From the NCBI GenBank assembly GCA_035549315.1, contig DASZRC010000038.1:1-57649 (forward strand): 57,649 bases of DNA. Reading direction: 5' to 3'. The notes below the pieces were generated by a model. The model was not told where the DNA came from and ran no database searches. It saw only the letters and a list, made by a program, of their open reading frames with translations. This DNA comes from Patescibacteria group bacterium (lineage in GTDB: Bacteria; Patescibacteriota; Microgenomatia; Levybacterales; GWA1-39-11). The translations under genes were made by a program, and so were the position numbers. Of this stretch, positions 39,838-50,642 are shown piece by piece (positions within the stretch are counted from its first letter, which is position 1; the number at the start of each line of letters is the position of its first letter).

Positions 39838-41622
39838 TTATTTGTTTAGTAGCCATTTATAAAAATCTTCGTAGGGTAGGCTGTTTAGAATATCTTTTTT
39901 TTCACACCAACCGCGTCTGGCAACAGAAACTCCATAAAACATGTGATCCATCTGGTCTGTTGCGTGACTGTCAGTATCTATTACAAATTTTACGCCAAGT
40001 TCTCTTGCTTCAAAAACAAGTGAATCTACAAGGTCTAGGCGGGTAGGCCATGCATTAATTTCTATTGCCTTGTTGTTTTCAACGCAAAACTTAAAAATCT
40101 TGTCATAATCCAACTGATATCCATCCCTTTGGTTTATAAGTCTGCCGCTGGGATGCGCAAGAATTTTTGCTTTGGGGTGAGACAAACCTTTTAAAACTCT
40201 TTCCGTCATTTTTTCCTTGGGAGTTTTAAACACGCTATGTATTGAGACAATTGCTCCATCCACATATTCCAATGCCTCGTCATCTATTGCAAGATCCCCT
40301 GAAGGTAAAATATCAAGTTCGAGCATGTTAATTACTCGAATACTTTTATTACTCTTTTTAATTTGTTCAATATATTCAAAACGCCTTTTCATTATTGAAA
40401 TAATTTGTTCCTTAGTATGGTTAGATGTGCTTGGGTGGTGTTCTGAAAATGCTAAGTACTCATATCCTAACTTCCTTGCGTAATCTAACATGTTTTGCAT
40501 AGTGTTCTGTCCCATATCATGACTTGGCTCTATGGGATAACTAGAGTGTATGTGGAGATCTCCTTTAATATCCTTCAGTTCAACTAATTTCGGTAAACCA
40601 GGTAGTTTACCCTGAGCTTGCCGAAGGGCTGCTTCTATTTCTCCTTTGTTCTCACGAATCTCCGGAGGAATCCAATCAAGTCCTAAAAAATTATAAAATG
40701 CTTCCTCTTTTTCAAAAGTTTTAACCGGTTGGTCTTTTTCTTTAAGTAATTTAATCCCTTTTTCTGACAAAGAAAAATTTTTCTTAAGTGAGTATTCACG
40801 TAAAGCAACATTGTGGTATTTGCTCCCCGTAAAATGTTGGAGAAGTGAACCAAAGGTTTCCGGAGTTTGGGCAATAAGGTCTACTTGTCTTCCGCCAGTA
40901 ACCAAAATAGATGAAGACGTTGGCCCTCTTTCAATAATTCTTTCAATATTTGGGTAATTAACAAAATGATTAATAGATTCTTCCGGATTTGTTGTTGCAA
41001 CTGCAAAATCTAAATCGCCAATTGTGTCTCTCATGCGTCTTAATGACCCCAATGGGAAAACTTGTGTAGTGTTTTTGTCTTTTCTAAGATATGCTTCTAT
41101 CTTTTTTGCTAGCTCGAATGCGTAGGGAAGTGGCATTCTGTTTGATTTTATTTTTCCTTGGCTAAATTCATCTAGGGCACGAATAATATCTGTTTGGGAT
41201 TTTTCTCCAAATGTCTCAAGTTCTGCAATGCGTCCGTCAATTGCTGCTTTCTTAAGGTCTTCATAAACAGTCTTTGGGTTATTAAGGTTTAAAGCAGTGA
41301 CGAGTTTATATGCTTTTTTGGGTCCAAGACTTGTAACATCCAAGAGTGGAAAAACACTTGCCGGTACCATAGAGGTTATTTCATCAAAATGCTTAAAGTG
41401 ACCATTCTTGTAAAGCTCTACAAGATGGGCGCGAATTGATGTACCAATACCTGGTATTTTTTCTTCTTCTTTCAGTAAATCCCCAAGCTCTGTGGGCAAA
41501 TGTGCAATTGCATCTGCGGCTTTTTGATAAGCAAGAAGCTGGAATAGATATTTTTTCTCGTCTTTTATGGAATAGGCGGCGGCTACATTTCTAAGAAGTT
41601 TAGCAACTTCGTGGTTAGTCAT
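39838..41622 (-). CDS. polX: family X DNA polymerase with C-terminal PHP phosphoesterase domain
   Basis: 594 aa. HhH N-terminus (NHEVAKLLRNVAAAY), GSLRRMRDTIGDLDF, and the PHP region (GDLHIHSSY...). Confidence 0.9.
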   Translation of the reverse strand: MTNHEVAKLLRNVAAAYSIKDEKKYLFQLLAYQKAADAIAHLPTELGDLLKEEEKIPGIGTSIRAHLVELYKNGHFKHFDEITSMVPASVFPLLDVTSLGPKKAYKLVTALNLNNPKTVYEDLKKAAIDGRIAELETFGEKSQTDIIRALDEFSQGKIKSNRMPLPYAFELAKKIEAYLRKDKNTTQVFPLGSLRRMRDTIGDLDFAVATTNPEESINHFVNYPNIERIIERGPTSSSILVTGGRQVDLIAQTPETFGSLLQHFTGSKYHNVALREYSLKKNFSLSEKGIKLLKEKDQPVKTFEKEEAFYNFLGLDWIPPEIRENKGEIEAALRQAQGKLPGLPKLVELKDIKGDLHIHSSYPIEPSHDMGQNTMQNMLDYARKLGYEYLAFSEHHPSTSNHTKEQIISIMKRRFEYIEQIKKSNKSIRVINMLELDILPSGDLAIDDEALEYVDGAIVSIHSVFKTPKEKMTERVLKGLSHPKAKILAHPSGRLINQRDGYQLDYDKIFKFCVENNKAIEINAWPTRLDLVDSLVFEARELGVKFVIDTDSHATDQMDHMFYGVSVARRGWCEKKDILNSLPYEDFYKWLLNK

Positions 41623-41628
41623 AGGGAT

Positions 41629-41657
41629 ATTTTAAACCAGAATTGACTCGAACTCAA
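41629..41657 (-). promoter_or_regulatory. sigma70-like promoter of polX (leaderless geometry)
   Basis: On the minus strand: TTGAGT (41657-41652), 17-nt spacer, TAAAAT (41634-41629). The ATG at 41622 is 6 nt downstream. Confidence 0.4.
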
Positions 41658-41671
41658 TAAATTGAGATAAT
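41643..41671 (+). promoter_or_regulatory. sigma70-like promoter of tRNA-Asp
   Basis: TTGACT (41643-41648), 17-nt spacer, GATAAT (41666-41671). The tRNA starts 15 nt downstream. It overlaps the divergent polX promoter. Confidence 0.5.
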
Positions 41672-41686
41672 ATAGCCTATCAATTT

Positions 41687-41763
41687 GGGGGCGTAGCTCA
41701 GTTGGTTAGAGCGCCTCCCTGTCACGGAGGAGGTCGCGGGTTCGAGTCCCGTCGCTCCCGCCA
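41687..41763 (+). tRNA. tRNA-Asp (anticodon GTC), CCA encoded
   Basis: Hand-folded cloverleaf: acceptor GGGGGCG/CGCTCCC, anticodon arm CCTCC-CTGTCAC-GGAGG, T arm GCGGG-TTCGAGT-CCCGT, 3' GCCA. Confidence 0.9.
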
Positions 41764-41820
41764 CATTCGTTTAGCATGGATGTGGCCCGCTACCCAATTG
41801 ATTTCCCCAAAAAGAACGTC

Positions 41821-41849
41821 TTGACAACCTGTTTAGTAAAGTTTATATT
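41821..41849 (+). promoter_or_regulatory. sigma70-like promoter of the LysM gene
   Basis: TTGACA (41821-41826), 17-nt spacer, TATATT (41844-41849). Confidence 0.5.
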
Positions 41850-41908
41850 TTACTGAAACTGCTCACTGTCCACGAGTTTTATTATTCTCTGTCCGCAAAA
41901 ATTATTAT

Positions 41909-42541
41909 ATGCCAAGAAAAAAGGTATCAGTTAAAAAATCGAGTAAAAAAGAGGTAGTCTTAAAAAGAAACGTCTCTACTTCTCCCATAGCAAAATCTTA
42001 CATAAGTCTTCTTTATGGTGTTTTATCAGTCGTAATACTTTTTGTAATTATATTTTTAGGTCTTAAGGCATTATCGGCTAGACCAAATCCTCAAATTTCA
42101 GATCAGGCGGCAAACACAGAAGCAAAAGTTACTTACACCGTAAAAACGGGTGATAGTTTGTGGACAATTGCCCAAGATCAGCTTAAGGATGGATACCAAT
42201 GGACAAGAATTGCAGAGGCGAATAAGATTTCTGACCCAAATATTATAGAAAAGGGTATGGTTCTCACAATGCCAGCCATAGAAACTCCAACCGTATCTCC
42301 TACCGTGTCTCCAAAGCCAACCACGGTTCCAACAGCACCTATAGCTATGCAGTCAGCACCAAACTCAGCCGGCTCAAAAATAACAGGGTCTAGTTACACT
42401 GTTGTAAGGGGAGACAATCTTTGGGATATAGCAGTAAGAGCATATGGAGACGGATACAAATGGACAGAAATTGCCAAAGCAAATAACCTTGCAAACCCTA
42501 GAATAATCCATTCAGGTAACAAATTCATATTACCTCGTTAG
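41909..42541 (+). CDS. membrane-anchored protein with two LysM peptidoglycan-binding domains
   Basis: 210 aa, TM anchor. Two LysM repeats (YTVKTGDSLWTIAQ...MVLTMP and YTVVRGDNLWDIAV...NKFILP) separated by a Pro/Thr linker. Confidence 0.85.
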   Translation: MPRKKVSVKKSSKKEVVLKRNVSTSPIAKSYISLLYGVLSVVILFVIIFLGLKALSARPNPQISDQAANTEAKVTYTVKTGDSLWTIAQDQLKDGYQWTRIAEANKISDPNIIEKGMVLTMPAIETPTVSPTVSPKPTTVPTAPIAMQSAPNSAGSKITGSSYTVVRGDNLWDIAVRAYGDGYKWTEIAKANNLANPRIIHSGNKFILPR

Positions 42542-42610
42542 TTGTTTTAATTTCCCTAAGATTATAAAATAGCCATTATTGCGTTTGTACTATAAAGTGT
42601 AGGCGCTGAA

Positions 42611-42645
42611 GCGGGCGTAGTTCACCGGTAGAATGTCTCCTTCCC
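42611..42645 (+). repeat. orphan copy of the 5' half of tRNA-Gly(CCC): acceptor, D arm, anticodon stem and loop through the anticodon
   Basis: The 35 nt gcgggcgtagttcaccggtagaatgtctccttccc are identical to 42995-43029. Identity stops right after the third anticodon base. Confidence 0.9.
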
Positions 42646-42994
42646 CCACCAAAAGTTCGCTTTGCTCTCAATTTGGCGGACCCGCCAGAATGCTTCAGCT
42701 TTCGGCGGGCAAGGTGTATTATGAAAGCATGTATTATACTTATGTTCTTTTATGTAGTAGTGTAAAAGATGGTAGGCATGAATTTTATACTGGTTTTTCT
42801 GCAAATTTACCTGAAAGAGAAATAGATTACAAGACTAAAAGTGTTAAAACAACTAAGAAATTTGATAAAATCGAACTCGTATATTTTGAAGCTTGCCTTA
42901 ATAAAGTCGATGCAATGAAAAGAGAGAAACAATTGAAAACAGGATTTGGTAGAGGCTATATTAAGAGAAGATTGGAAAGTTATATAAATACGTT
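42646..42994 (+). mobile_element. GIY-YIG mini-cassette (349 bp) bracketed by the duplicated tRNA-Gly 5' half
   Basis: This interval between the two 35-nt copies holds a GC-rich hairpin (CCCGCC 42681-42686 / GGCGGG 42704-42709) and a single GIY-YIG ORF. No other gene is present. Confidence 0.6.
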
Positions 42995-43004
42995 GCGGGC
43001 GTAG
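42729..43004 (+). CDS. small GIY-YIG nuclease-family protein
   Basis: 91 aa from ATG 42729: MYYTYVLL...EFYTGFS...REKQLKTGFGRGYIKRRL. The listed ORF 42633..43004 is an N-terminal over-extension into the tRNA fragment. AAGGTG lies upstream. The stop TAG (43002-43004) lies inside the tRNA-Gly gene. Confidence 0.75.
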   Translation: MYYTYVLLCSSVKDGRHEFYTGFSANLPEREIDYKTKSVKTTKKFDKIELVYFEACLNKVDAMKREKQLKTGFGRGYIKRRLESYINTLRA

Positions 43005-43066
43005 TTCACCGGTAGAATGTCTCCTTCCCAAGGAGAAGGCAGTGGGTCCGATTCCCATCGCCCGCT
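42995..43066 (+). tRNA. tRNA-Gly (anticodon CCC), CCA not encoded
   Basis: Hand-folded: acceptor GCGGGCG/CGCCCGC, anticodon arm TCTCC-TTCCCAA-GGAGA, T arm GTGGG-TCCGATT-CCCAT, discriminator T. Confidence 0.85.
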
Positions 43067-43067
43067 C

Positions 43068-43517
43068 ATGAAGAATAATTCCAAAATAAGTTTATTAGAC
43101 AGAGTCTGGAGCTTAAAAGCTGTTATTCTTTCATTTGGAATTGCGTTAGGTATAATGCTTTTCGTTGGCATATTTTGGACCAGCGTTAAATACGAGAATT
43201 ACGACAAAACTCACCACTTTTACTTGAATAGAGGATTATTTGGAACATGGGCGGGTGAGGGTTCACCTAATACTAAAGTTTATTTTCCTTTTGTTAAAGT
43301 ACCGTTTGTTGAAACTATTGAGCCGCTCGGAAATAATAAAATTGCAAAAATAATAGATGTTTCTATATTTGTTCCAGATCTTTTAGTGATTATGCTAATA
43401 TGCTATCCTCTTGCATTAGCAATTGTTCGTAGTTTAGACAAGAAATACAACTTTTTCTATTTAATAATATTTGTATTGGATTGCTGGTTATATTTTAGTT
43501 GGTTTCCCAGAGTTTAA
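43068..43517 (+). CDS. small membrane protein, unknown function
   Basis: The listed ORF starts at 43017 inside the tRNA. In-frame ATG 43068 (MKNNSKISLL...) lies 2 nt after the tRNA. Three or four hydrophobic helices. Confidence 0.55.
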   Translation: MKNNSKISLLDRVWSLKAVILSFGIALGIMLFVGIFWTSVKYENYDKTHHFYLNRGLFGTWAGEGSPNTKVYFPFVKVPFVETIEPLGNNKIAKIIDVSIFVPDLLVIMLICYPLALAIVRSLDKKYNFFYLIIFVLDCWLYFSWFPRV

Positions 43518-43560
43518 AATTAACAATTGACTCAATTAGAGCATTTTGATAATATAAATC

Positions 43561-45231
43561 GTGCCGCTCAAGAATTCTTCAAAACATAAAACAAAATACA
43601 TTTTTGTCTCCGGGGGAGTCATTTCAGGCATCGGAAAAGGTATTACGGCCGCCTCAATAGCATTACTTCTAAAAGCCAGGGGTCTTAGGGTTGCTCCATT
43701 AAAGTTTGAAAATTATCTCAATTTAGACGCAGGCACAATTAATCCCATAGAGCATGGAGATCCATTTCTGTGTGAAGACGGTACAGAGGGCGATATGGAC
43801 ATTGGGTCTTATGAAAAATTCTTAGACGAGGATATGGGACGCGACAACTTTGTCACTATGGGGAGGATTTACCAAACCGTAATAGATAGAGAAAGGCGCT
43901 TTGAATATAACGGAGAAGACGTTGAGGCAATACCTCATATAACAGATGAAATTATTTCAAGAATTACTACTCTTGCCAAAAAAAGTGACGCAGATGTTGT
44001 TTTGGTAGAACTTGGAGGAACAGCAGGGGAATATCAAAATGTATTTTATTATGAAGCTTCCCGTATTTTGACCCTTAAGAATCCAGGAGATGTTGTGCAT
44101 ATTCACGTAAGTTATGTTCCAACGCCAAGCCATTTGGGAGAACCTAAAACCAAACCAACTCAACTATCTGTAAGAACTCTCAACTCTATGGGAATTCAGC
44201 CTGACTTTATAGTTGCAAGAAGTGAAAAATATCTTGACCAAAGAAGGCGCGACCGTTTTGCACTCTTTTGCAATATGGAAGGGGAAGCTATTATTTCCAA
44301 TCCGGATGTGGAAACAGTATATGAAATTCCATTGGTGCTTCATAAACAAGAGTTGGATAAAAAAATCCTCACTAAATTAGGCTTGAAAATAGAGAAATCA
44401 AATCTTTCTGCCTGGGAAGAATTGGTAAGAAAGATTAAAGCTCCAAAGAAAAAGACAATAAATATTGCAATCATTGGTAAATATTTTGGTACGGGGGAAT
44501 ACCAGATAAGAGATTCTTATGCGGCCCTTTTTGATGCAATAGATCATGCTTCATGGTTTAACGGGTTAGAAGTTAAAACCCATTGGATTGATGCTGAAAA
44601 GCTTGAAAAGACAGACGCTAAAGAGCTTATAGGTAAGCCTGATGGTATTATAGTTCCAATTGGATGGGGTTTGAGAGGGGCTGAGGGTATGATAAAGGCA
44701 GCTTCCTATGCCAGAGAAAATAAAATTCCATATTTAGGATTATGTTACGGAATGCAGTTGGCGGCCATTGCCTTTGCTCGAGACGTTTTGGGTTTTAAAG
44801 ATGCAAATACTACAGAAAATGATCCTGATTCAAAACATCCGGTGATACATATCATAGAAGCTCAAAAAGAACATATGAAAAATAGGGCATACGGCGGAAC
44901 AATGAGGCTCGGTGGTTGGGAGGCAATAGTTAAAAAGGGAACAAGAGCTTTTGATTTTTACTCAAAATATGGGGATATTGATAAAAAAACCGGATTAACT
45001 TCAGAAAGGCACAGGCACAGATTTGAGTTTAATAACAAGTTTGCAGAGGATTTTGAGAGGAAGGGGCTTATAATTAGCGCCAGATCTGTTAAGGAAAGTC
45101 TAGTTGAGATACTCGAGTTACCGGCTTCCGCCCACCCCTTTTATATGGGTACTCAAGGCCATCCGGAATATAAAAGCAGACCTCTTAAGCCACATCCTTT
45201 CTTTATTGAGTTCCTCAAAGCTTGTGCATAA
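43561..45231 (+). CDS. pyrG: CTP synthase
   Basis: 556 aa. KYIFVSGGVISGIGKGITAAS, plus the GATase domain (GLCYGMQ, HRHRFEFN). GTG start. Confidence 0.97.
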   Translation: MPLKNSSKHKTKYIFVSGGVISGIGKGITAASIALLLKARGLRVAPLKFENYLNLDAGTINPIEHGDPFLCEDGTEGDMDIGSYEKFLDEDMGRDNFVTMGRIYQTVIDRERRFEYNGEDVEAIPHITDEIISRITTLAKKSDADVVLVELGGTAGEYQNVFYYEASRILTLKNPGDVVHIHVSYVPTPSHLGEPKTKPTQLSVRTLNSMGIQPDFIVARSEKYLDQRRRDRFALFCNMEGEAIISNPDVETVYEIPLVLHKQELDKKILTKLGLKIEKSNLSAWEELVRKIKAPKKKTINIAIIGKYFGTGEYQIRDSYAALFDAIDHASWFNGLEVKTHWIDAEKLEKTDAKELIGKPDGIIVPIGWGLRGAEGMIKAASYARENKIPYLGLCYGMQLAAIAFARDVLGFKDANTTENDPDSKHPVIHIIEAQKEHMKNRAYGGTMRLGGWEAIVKKGTRAFDFYSKYGDIDKKTGLTSERHRHRFEFNNKFAEDFERKGLIISARSVKESLVEILELPASAHPFYMGTQGHPEYKSRPLKPHPFFIEFLKACA

Positions 45232-50091: not shown

Positions 50092-50165
50092 GGCGCCATC
50101 GTCTAGTGGCCTAGGACACAGGGCTTTCATCCCTGTAATCATGGGTTCGAATCCCATTGGCGTCA
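50092..50165 (+). tRNA. tRNA-Glu (anticodon TTC), CCA not encoded
   Basis: Hand-folded: acceptor GGCGCCA/TGGCGTC, anticodon arm CAGGG-CTTTCAT-CCCTG, T arm ATGGG-TTCGAAT-CCCAT. Confidence 0.9.
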
Positions 50166-50166
50166 C

Positions 50167-50506
50167 TAACCTTCGCTAAAGCTACGGTTAGCAAGCAATG
50201 TATTATACGTACGTTCTTAGGAATAATAAAACGAATCGTTATTACATAGGCTATACTCCTGATTTGAAAAACCGGCTGATGAAACACAAGTCGGGAAAAG
50301 TCTTATCTACTAAATCAAATTTAAACTACGAACTGGAATGGTATTGTGCTTTCAAAACAAAGGGTCAGGCATTATCTTTCGAACAATACTTAAAAACAGG
50401 TTCTGGTGTAGCATTTATGAAAAAAAGGTTTTTCAAATCTGAAGCTTTTGCGAAGTTAGAATCAATGGGAAGTCCTGCTACTCGTAGCTCAAAGAGCGAA
50501 GTGTAG
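50167..50506 (+). mobile_element. GIY-YIG mini-cassette (340 bp) bracketed by a duplicated tRNA-Glu 3' end
   Basis: This interval lies between the two copies of tcccattggcgtcac (50152-50166 and 50507-50521). It holds a hairpin (CTAACC 50166-50171 / GGTTAG 50186-50191) and one GIY-YIG ORF. Confidence 0.6.
50198..50506 (+). CDS. small GIY-YIG nuclease-family protein
   Basis: 102 aa. MYYTYVLRNNKTNRYYIGYTPDLKNRLMKHKSG...FEQYLKTGSGVAFMKKRF, with GIY...YIG, the conserved Arg and Glu. The stop TAG abuts the second tRNA-derived repeat. Confidence 0.85.
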   Translation: MYYTYVLRNNKTNRYYIGYTPDLKNRLMKHKSGKVLSTKSNLNYELEWYCAFKTKGQALSFEQYLKTGSGVAFMKKRFFKSEAFAKLESMGSPATRSSKSEV

Positions 50507-50521
50507 TCCCATTGGCGTCAC
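50507..50521 (+). repeat. orphan copy of the 3' end of tRNA-Glu (last T-loop base, T-stem 3' strand, acceptor 3' strand, discriminator, +1 nt)
   Basis: tcccattggcgtcac is identical to 50152-50166. Confidence 0.85.
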
Positions 50522-50642
50522 CTAAAGGAATGCTCAGGCATGGGGTTCGAACCTTTTGAACGTGAATTGTTTGTAAGATTTCTTCATCAGTATTTTCATC
50601 TTTAATTACCACCCTCATTTTGGTTCGATATTCCATTAGGGT
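50520..50642 (-). repeat. ~123-nt repeat, copy A, containing a 46-codon ORF (50478..50618, minus)
   Basis: Matches 52237-52358. The plus-strand block acctaaaggaatgctca...cgtgaa has 42/47 identical positions. The block cctcatt(t)tggttcRatattccattagggt differs by 1 indel and 1 mismatch. Minus-strand ORF: MRVVIKDENTDEEILQTIHVQKVRTPCLSIPLGDANGTTLRSLSYE. Confidence 0.6.

Follow-up and report, generated by a model that had tools for sequence, protein, structure and literature searches.

A glycine tRNA gene in a 57,649-nt stretch of contig DASZRC010000038.1 of a Patescibacteria group bacterium (the window, hereafter, for the whole stretch at its full length) holds a 384-bp cassette, which consists of a GC-rich double hairpin and a gene for a GIY-YIG nuclease of 91 amino acids (aa). 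The surrounding gene order is PolX (on the minus strand), tRNA-Asp, LysM, the cassette with tRNA-Gly, and CTP synthase. An intact tRNA-Gly(CCC), the working copy, is found on the plus strand at 42995-43066/7 by both ARAGORN (42995-43067) and the Rfam tRNA model (59.7 bits). Its 5' part also occurs upstream: 42611-42645 and 42995-43029 are identical in 35/35 nt, with 384 nt between their starts and 349 nt between the copies, and the chance occurrence of such a 35-mer match in 57.6 kb is negligible. The anticodon comprises nt 33-35 of the tRNA, so that the repeat stops at the third anticodon base.

The 35th matching base (C42645) is nt 1 of a conserved, dyad-symmetric double-hairpin module of 65 nt (42645-42709, to which no strand is assigned), recognised by a covariance model and by folding. 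Consequently, the true tRNA identity is 34 nt, and the orphan copy of tRNA-Gly(CCC) nt 1-34 is placed at 42611-42644 on the plus strand. Directly 3' of the module the tRNA copy restarts on the same strand with CAAGG (42710-42714, read from the sequence), corresponding to tRNA nt 35-39. The upstream piece is a 39-nt copy of tRNA-Gly that is split by the module within the anticodon, and the identity of the repeat ends in the anticodon because the module is inserted there. After another 14 nt the open reading frame (ORF) of the nuclease follows (42729-43004, plus strand). It ends within the intact tRNA, since its TAG stop codon (43002-43004) coincides with tRNA nt 8-10. The orphan fragment begins 69 nt past the LysM stop codon, which is where the tRNA begins in relatives with an empty site. 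Neither a further ORF nor a recombinase ORF was found in or near the 384-bp insert, and a scan of 41500-44000 with Rfam at E<=1 returned only the two tRNAs and no intron or other RNA family.

An earlier note on this DNA had described the exact 35-nt repeat of the tRNA 5' half, the intact tRNA-Gly(CCC) at 42995-43066, the end of the identity at the third anticodon base, and a 91-aa GIY-YIG ORF with its stop codon in the intact tRNA. These observations all stand, with base 35 of the repeat reassigned to the module. The note had further given a GC-rich hairpin and the ORF as the only content between the copies; both are there, but the hairpin is not incidental, being a conserved module after which the tRNA copy resumes.

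The ORF matches the Pfam GIY-YIG family (PF01541) with 34.2 bits against a cut-off of 22.6 (E 3.2e-8), the match spanning residues 33-107 of a 123-aa reading. This longer frame, which starts at 42633 inside the orphan fragment, was rejected: homologues all begin with MYYTY, corresponding to 42729, and the real start is therefore 42729, giving 91 aa. The protein consists of the GIY-YIG catalytic domain only and matches no other domain; no NCBIfam model matches it and PHROGs gave no meaningful match. In a profile search the nearest solved structures were the UPF0213 proteins BH0048 and EF2693 (E 3e-4), followed by SLX1 and UvrC. A word-indexed search yielded 341 homologues, and a profile search of 1.84 billion representatives yielded 778 clusters at 50% identity (E<=1e-10), nearly all of 80-130 aa; the named sources are Levy-, Gottesman-, Woese-, Specht- and Wildermuthbacteria and other Patescibacteria. 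About 20 columns are invariant across 120 sequences, including Y5, Y20, G22, R30, E54, E66 and the C-terminal motif KTGFGRGY(I/L)KRR, a pattern that points to strong purifying selection on the protein.

Two short sequences might be involved in expression. The AAGG of the CAAGG patch resembles a Shine-Dalgarno sequence and could act as ribosome-binding site for the ORF; its distance to the ATG is 12 nt in the window and 5-9 nt in most relatives. A promoter-like TTGAAA-18-TATATT (42933-42962, plus strand) lies within the 3' end of the ORF, 32 nt 5' of the intact tRNA. As a consensus match only (10/12 positions) it is a possible internal promoter for this tRNA. The best-conserved motif of the protein, QLKTGFGRGYI, is encoded by codons that coincide with it, and part of their conservation might reflect a dual role as tRNA promoter.

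Across related loci the module follows the consensus (T/C)CCGCC-AAAAG...ATTT-GGCGG-A-CCCGCC-AAATG...CTTTTGGCGGG, a unit of about 64 nt with two hairpins. In an alignment of 31 module copies compensatory double changes occur in 15/23 predicted pairs, and the base that separates the hairpins is the pairing partner of module nt 1 (U-A in 20 copies, C-G in 10). The covariance model built from this alignment (R1) scores the window module with 53.8 bits on the plus strand (E 3e-10) and 51.2 bits on the minus strand; the two scores are almost equal because hairpin 2 is nearly the reverse complement of hairpin 1. Moreover, G-U pairs (7) are in no excess over A-C pairs (5). Together, the fit to both strands and the missing G-U excess weakly hint at a role of the module at the DNA level. 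The window copy carries two non-Watson-Crick pairs in hairpin 1, a C opposite A and an A.C in CCACC/GGCGG.

The match at 42645-42709 is the single R1 match in the 57.6 kb of the window. All R1 copies in 390 kb of related loci adjoin cassettes or their tRNAs and none is present in the empty-site loci. A general genomic repeat is ruled out by the one copy in the window and the absence from the empty-site loci. A family of miniature inverted-repeat transposable elements (MITEs) or double-hairpin repeats was rejected as well, dispersed and gene-independent copies not being seen (one in 57.6 kb). No complementarity was seen between the module loops and the tRNA sequence; given also the fit to both strands and the lack of a G-U excess, the idea of an RNA guide was dropped.

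The combination of hairpin, nuclease gene and tRNA is not confined to the window. When GTDB species were scanned with one genome each, at least 588 related loci came back, mostly in the Candidate Phyla Radiation (CPR), and 80 of these were kept for analysis. A tRNA on the same strand follows just 3' of the ORF in 64/80 loci and is within 25 nt of it in 60/80; in 47/80 loci the stop codon falls within the tRNA, most often as TAG at nt 8-10. The R1 module is found within 60 nt upstream of the ATG in 58/80 loci, and in most loci the 5' part of this tRNA is also present as a copy upstream. The closest proteins adjoin tRNA-Gly(CCC), and more distant ones adjoin tRNAs for Gly(UCC/GCC), Val, Ile, Gln, Glu, Asn, Thr, His, Lys, Leu, Ala and Ser. 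Overall, the cassette has three parts: a cognate GC-rich double hairpin, a gene of about 90 codons for a domain-only GIY-YIG protein, and tRNA sequence that rebuilds a working tRNA (a whole tRNA gene in some relatives). An assembly artefact is unlikely, because many independent assemblies show the same architecture. The arrangement is old and widespread, not a one-off recent event; Levybacteria with ORFs of only 68-70% identity carry syntenic copies.

Two loci show related layouts. In L091 (3082-3478; PolX 77% identical to that of the window) an inverted tRNA-Asp is followed by a hairpin and then by a different small GIY-YIG ORF, of the COG2827 type (MYYFYVLRSLKNEKLYIGWT...). In L039 (about 2600-2800) the arrangement is nested: a split GC hairpin occupies the anticodon of a disrupted tRNA-Gly, with the 5' and 3' parts of that tRNA on either side, and an intact tRNA-Gly is enclosed between the two hairpin arms.

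Among the related loci the module is inserted inside the anticodon (TTCC-module-CAAG; 25-30 cases), in the D-loop, or elsewhere in the T-loop or at the tRNA 3' end, and these positions are always single-stranded in the tRNA cloverleaf. A C-AAG(G) patch stands directly 3' of the module in about 30 loci. In L030, L052 and L081 an intact tRNA-Pro has the R1 module joined directly to its 3' end (...ATCCCCGA, then module), and the ORF comes after the module; the tRNA 3' tail is thus a fourth place of insertion. In a separate protein clade (18 leaves) the hairpin is a different, long single one (CCCGCCTGCAACGC...GCATTGCGGGCAGG or the CCGCCTCGCC type) and the range of target tRNAs is wider; the hairpin type therefore tracks the protein clade. 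In L066, L069, L070 and L086 the ORF lies inside the loop of a long hairpin. In the same loci (about 2350-2500 in L070) a third type of GC-rich hairpin, CCCGCCCGCCTCGCCTGAGCGAGCG...GGCTCGCGATGGCGGGCAGG, is present in tandem 5' of the ORF, one hairpin of this kind holds the ORF in its loop, and no tRNA was detected nearby.

Comparison with relatives of the window reveals both occupied and empty sites, a presence/absence polymorphism for which the earlier note had proposed to look. L003 and L005 share the context of the window and carry the cassette, and L001 carries it in a rearranged context. In L087 (PolX 58% identical) an uninterrupted tRNA-Gly(CCC) lies 64 nt past LysM, its 5' half differing in one base from that of the window, and in L092 (PolX 76% identical) an uninterrupted tRNA-Gly(CCC) lies 40 nt past LysM. 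L089, the closest relative (PolX 90% identical), and L090 (PolX 77% identical) both have an inverted, uninterrupted tRNA-Gly and no ORF. At the syntenic site of all of these (L087, L092, L089 and L090) ORF and module are both absent. A metagenome scan with PolX gave two loci, the empty site L087 and L088, which ends at tRNA-Asp. The inverted tRNA-Gly(CCC) has the orientation opposite to LysM at 2567-2639 in L089, where it adjoins the LysM stop codon, and at 2730-2802 in L090; even without the cassette, rearrangements seem to concentrate at this locus. On the other side of the tRNA, a listed ORF of 166 aa (window 43017-43517) overlaps the tRNA, its likely real start being the ATG at 43069. It has no Pfam match, and L089 has no counterpart of it between tRNA-Gly and CTP synthase.

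Where did the two tRNA sequences of a cassette come from? For 14 loci with a full 34-nt fragment and an intact tRNA-Gly(CCC) we compared the two: the fragment is identical to the neighbouring tRNA in 5/14, the window included, and closer to the functional tRNA of a foreign lineage than to its own neighbour in 8/14. The fragment of L005, for instance, matches its own neighbour in 24/34 positions and the functional tRNA of L007/L032 in 34/34. As the differences between fragment and neighbour involve co-adapted stems, decay of a local duplicate does not explain them. In L001 the halves of the resident tRNA-Gly (GCGGGGT.../...ACCCCGC) flank the ORF together with a different intact tRNA-Gly (GCGAGAG.../...CTCTCGC), and the resident type is the functional tRNA in L007, L011, L032, L033 and L092. 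Split resident tRNAs of which both halves are left occur in L001, L013, L014, L068 and L077. A second module is situated just 3' of the intact tRNA, at the same tRNA position in the 3' fragment, in L014, L068, L077, L013, L012, L028 and L056.

Two further ideas about these tRNAs were discarded. An "immune allele" rule, by which the cargo tRNA would always be of a type unlike the target, does not hold, as all combinations of the two main tRNA-Gly(CCC) types occur. The other is a pairing of the orphan 5' half with the downstream 3' half as an alternative or spliced tRNA; their acceptor strands are not complementary in the relatives L003 and L005.

The window contains a second cassette. Here the intact tRNA is tRNA-Glu(UUC) (50092-50166), and the GIY-YIG ORF downstream of it (50198-50506) encodes 102 aa, matches Pfam with E 1.6e-14 and shares 34% identity with the ORF of the first cassette. 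An exact 15-nt copy of tRNA-Glu nt 61-75 stands directly 3' of this ORF (50507-50521), which places the breakpoint in the T-loop. The ORF lies between inverted repeats (50165-50193 and 50476-50507), and another fragment that resembles a T-arm is present at 50540-50553. The second cassette is the mirror image of the first in topology, and the phenomenon is therefore recurrent in this genome. The mirror-image order (intact tRNA, ORF, hairpin, 3' fragment) exists elsewhere too, for example in L078. This locus (about 2400-2850), in a metagenome-assembled genome labelled Akkermansia muciniphila, places a cassette outside the CPR; the order is an intact tRNA-Val(GAC) with a 20-nt flank, the ORF, a 9-nt tRNA patch, the hairpin, and a tRNA 3' part with the same 20-nt flank.

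Taking these data together, we consider it probable that the cassette is a selfish element of the homing type which brings its own replacement tRNA, and that it belongs to a large family in CPR/Patescibacteria. The sequences show how the locus is built, that ORFs of the family are linked to module and tRNA, that empty sites exist, that fragments can be of a foreign type, and that the type of module varies with the protein clade; the reading is built on these points. The specificity of the nuclease, the route of homing, the logic of expression and the role of the module we infer from sequence, as follows. The nuclease would break uninterrupted tRNA genes. Compared with relatives that lack the cassette, the insertion falls in a loop where the resident tRNA is single-stranded, in the window within the anticodon of tRNA-Gly(CCC). 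The break would be repaired by recombination, with the tRNA sequence that flanks the insert serving as homology arms. As tRNAs are conserved, the element would need no flanking synteny and could spread between lineages. The resident 5' part would be displaced upstream as an orphan fragment abutting the module, and the ORF would run into the restored tRNA, taking its stop codon from U8-A9-G10. The perfect 34-35-nt repeat may have arisen by gene conversion with the adjacent tRNA, or the resident tRNA may already have been near-identical. Recombination between these direct repeats would excise the cassette precisely.

As for expression, a single transcript from the promoter of the resident tRNA would span fragment, module, ORF and tRNA, with the AAGG patch driving expression of the ORF. 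The RNase P cut at tRNA nt 1 would then strip the ORF of its stop codon, which could keep nuclease levels low, and the internal TTGAAA-18-TATATT might drive the tRNA separately. The module is probably what the domain-only nuclease works with in cis, most likely as DNA, although we have low confidence in any specific mechanism for it.

Several observations weigh against this explanation. The restored tRNA still holds the presumed target sequence, and the avoidance of self-cleavage is left unaccounted for. The nuclease, with 91 aa and no recognisable DNA-binding domain, lacks the two-domain structure by which a Seg-like homing endonuclease would be recognised. Among viral contigs (IMG/VR, 2.9 million) one related locus only was found, and no vector is therefore evident; a phage origin, for which PHROGs likewise gave no meaningful match, was rejected. 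For the window copy, whose fragment does not differ from its tRNA, replacement from outside is not demonstrable. ORF identity among syntenic carriers is 68-70% and PolX identity is 59-66%, so that ORF divergence is about that of the hosts and repeated invasion accounts for this locus no better than an old insertion followed by losses.

A last point concerns the nuclease itself. Position 34 is Tyr in the window only and His in 119/120 relatives, as part of an R30-x3-H34 motif. We take His34 to be a conserved residue of the GIY-YIG active site, with R30/H34 equated to R27/H31 of I-TevI. The codon in question (42828-42830) reads TAC, one transition from CAC, and could mean either that the nuclease has truly decayed or that an error was made in sequencing or assembly; the window protein also has F in place of the usual Y53. 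The earlier note had named inactivating changes at catalytic residues as an argument against a selfish element: Y5, Y20, G22, R30 and E66 are kept, but H34 is not. The window nuclease may be impaired by this change and, considering also the degraded module stem, the window copy is probably old and possibly inactive. The selfish element with a replacement tRNA half which that note had proposed is thus retained as an integrase-less and intron-less cassette (with empty sites, tRNA linkage and foreign fragments), but not as a one-off recent event.

Four other explanations were considered. One is a new class of bacterial element that resembles a gene drive, which we regard as conceivable though on the unlikely side. 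Here nuclease and cognate dyad-symmetric hairpin DNA would together break tRNA loops, with recognition supplied by the hairpin; the resident essential tRNA would be destroyed and a linked replacement carried along. Such an element could enter any lineage with the tRNA as homology arms, and its loss would kill the cell.

Somewhat less likely in our view is an element directed by the hairpin, in which the double hairpin is the mobile or targeting unit (comparable to a MITE or an IS200/IS605 end), enters tRNA loops, is mobilised by the nuclease or guides it, and carries the replacement tRNA as an antidote against loss. Modules are found only at loop or tail positions of tRNAs and always abut the displaced fragment, and they also occur 3' of the intact tRNA within 3' fragments. 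The co-variation of hairpin type and protein clade would fit this as well, as would the ORF lying in the loop of a long hairpin at L066, L069, L070, L086 and the second cassette of the window. The dyad symmetry, with its fit to both strands and 7 G-U versus 5 A-C pairs, favours action at the DNA level, and the structure-specific nuclease SLX1 is among the nearest solved relatives. To our knowledge, however, GIY-YIG enzymes are not known for strand transfer. The module is moreover not dispersed as MITEs are, given the one copy in 57.6 kb and the position of all copies in 390 kb beside cassettes, and its loops show no complementarity to the tRNA.

We consider it improbable that the locus is domesticated and beneficial to the host, with GIY-YIG protein and hairpin as an accessory of tRNA genes (for example in the control of expression, in processing, or in repair where tRNA loci are heavily transcribed), vertical inheritance, occasional loss, and fragments that are by-products of local rearrangement. 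The strong purifying selection on the protein (about 20 invariant columns in 120 sequences) would suit such a role, and so would the syntenic position kept in Levybacteria, the ORF divergence close to that of the hosts, the near-absence from viral contigs and the promoter-like site for the tRNA inside the ORF. Nonetheless, presence is patchy and the closest relative is without the cassette, and many different tRNAs are targeted. Also against it are the fragments that match functional tRNAs of foreign lineages, the debris of split resident tRNAs with both halves left, and the pair of cassettes with different topology in one genome.

An intron, split tRNA or integrase att remnant, with the upstream half as 5' exon or att duplication, can practically be dismissed: although bacterial group I introns are generally known from the tRNA anticodon loop, where the break lies, and integration classically takes place at tRNA genes, neither an intron nor any other RNA family of Rfam matches at E<=1, only 65 nt are structured, a complete tRNA and not a 3' exon follows the ORF, no recombinase or other ORF is present in or near the 384-bp insert, and the duplicated part is the 5' part and not the usual 3' part. 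For these reasons a group I intron in the anticodon loop (no intron match, complete tRNA after the ORF) and an integrase-mediated element that targets tRNAs (no other ORF in the insert, 5' duplication) were both rejected.

If the reading as a homing-type cassette with replacement tRNA is true, tRNA genes of CPR/Patescibacteria are host to a widespread and tiny selfish element, and an essential RNA gene without intron can be invaded by way of a replacement tRNA. It would account for the orphan tRNA fragments and the GC-rich hairpins that accompany tRNA genes in the CPR as well as for the movement of tRNA alleles between lineages, and would help to annotate thousands of "GIY-YIG nuclease family proteins" of about 90 aa without assigned role. 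For annotation it also follows that loci of this kind are not to be taken for tRNA pseudogenes, split tRNAs or assembly errors. Finally, it would offer a minimal system for target choice by a 91-aa nuclease domain, with a bearing on the evolution of homing endonucleases and possibly on compact genome-editing tools.

In the literature covered we found no description of this bacterial tRNA cassette, most papers in subscription journals being outside that coverage so that this is no proof of novelty; the family is apparently undescribed. The layout of flank, structured element and ORF resembles that of OMEGA systems (IscB/TnpB) by analogy only. An RNA-guided nuclease of that type was rejected, as the nuclease is GIY-YIG, Rfam gives no match and the module fits both strands and has no G-U excess. 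With regard to the protein, UPF0213/COG2827 (BH0048, 1zg2; EF2693, 1ywl; the class of E. coli YhbQ) is similar in having about 90-107 aa and the catalytic domain only. The sequence similarity is low, however, and no NCBIfam model matches the cassette protein; unlike UPF0213, the cassette family has its own KTGFGRGY(I/L)KRR motif and a strict linkage to tRNA 5' ends.

SegB of phages T4/T6 is a free-standing GIY-YIG protein that acts on DNA containing tRNA genes (PMC13096335; for Seg proteins, PMC2988022), and the 5' part of a tRNA gene has been reported to recombine with the 3' end of segB (PMC13096335; PMC2988022). Like the cassette, Seg proteins are of the GIY-YIG family and encoded by a free-standing gene without intron. 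They differ in having more than 200 aa with a DNA-binding domain, in being phage-borne and in lying between tRNA genes, and no duplication of a tRNA part with a hairpin module has been described for Seg systems. The cassette family is instead chromosomal in CPR bacteria, with the single match in 2.9 million viral contigs. SegB, which the earlier note had cited as precedent, is therefore apt for the class of target but not for the architecture, the DNA-binding domain of SegB/I-TevI being absent here.

Within the CPR, rRNA genes have insertions that encode GIY-YIG proteins and match neither group I nor group II introns (PMC11270868). By description these resemble the cassette in host, in having a GIY-YIG ORF in a structural RNA gene and in lacking an intron ribozyme. 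Unlike the cassette they were judged sparse and not spread by homing (PMC11270868), whereas the cassette targets tRNAs, restores a working copy and recurs in hundreds of genomes. A resemblance to the module is found in mitochondrial DNA of Allomyces, for which GC-rich double-hairpin elements are described (Paquin et al. 2000, as cited in PMC3787672). As far as that citation describes them, they likewise consist of two adjacent GC-rich hairpins in an AT-rich genome, are regarded as mobile and occur in genomes with endonuclease ORFs. On the same basis the module would differ in being present in a single copy per locus tied to one nuclease gene, in its conservation across CPR phyla, in its restriction to tRNA loops, and in having no sequence relationship to them.

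The closest concept that we found is that of fungal mitochondrial mORFs, free-standing endonuclease ORFs which are inserted in atp6, atp9, cox2 and nad3 together with their own replacement C-terminus and leave the native terminus as a fragment (PMC3630166); examples are Allomyces atp6 and Glomus atp6, atp9, cox2 and nad3 (PMC3630166). By analogy, the cassette is best read as the bacterial tRNA counterpart of these mORFs, which thus supply a conceptual precedent where the earlier note had known of no described cassette. In both an endonuclease ORF (LAGLIDADG or GIY-YIG for mORFs) sits in an essential gene and brings its own copy of the displaced part, and the native part persists nearby as an unused fragment, in the window as orphan nt 1-34 (+5) beside the intact tRNA. 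As in L005 and L001, the native fragment of an mORF matches lineages free of the element and the working copy is of another type; in the window, by contrast, working copy and fragment are identical, whereas they differ in 8/14 related loci. Further differences are that mORFs reside in a mitochondrial protein gene and the cassette in a bacterial tRNA gene, that the cassette usually replaces the 5' part and sometimes the whole tRNA, and that it has a 91-aa catalytic domain only and a conserved double hairpin at the junction. The novelty lies in the class of host gene (tRNA), the minimal nuclease and the cognate double hairpin.

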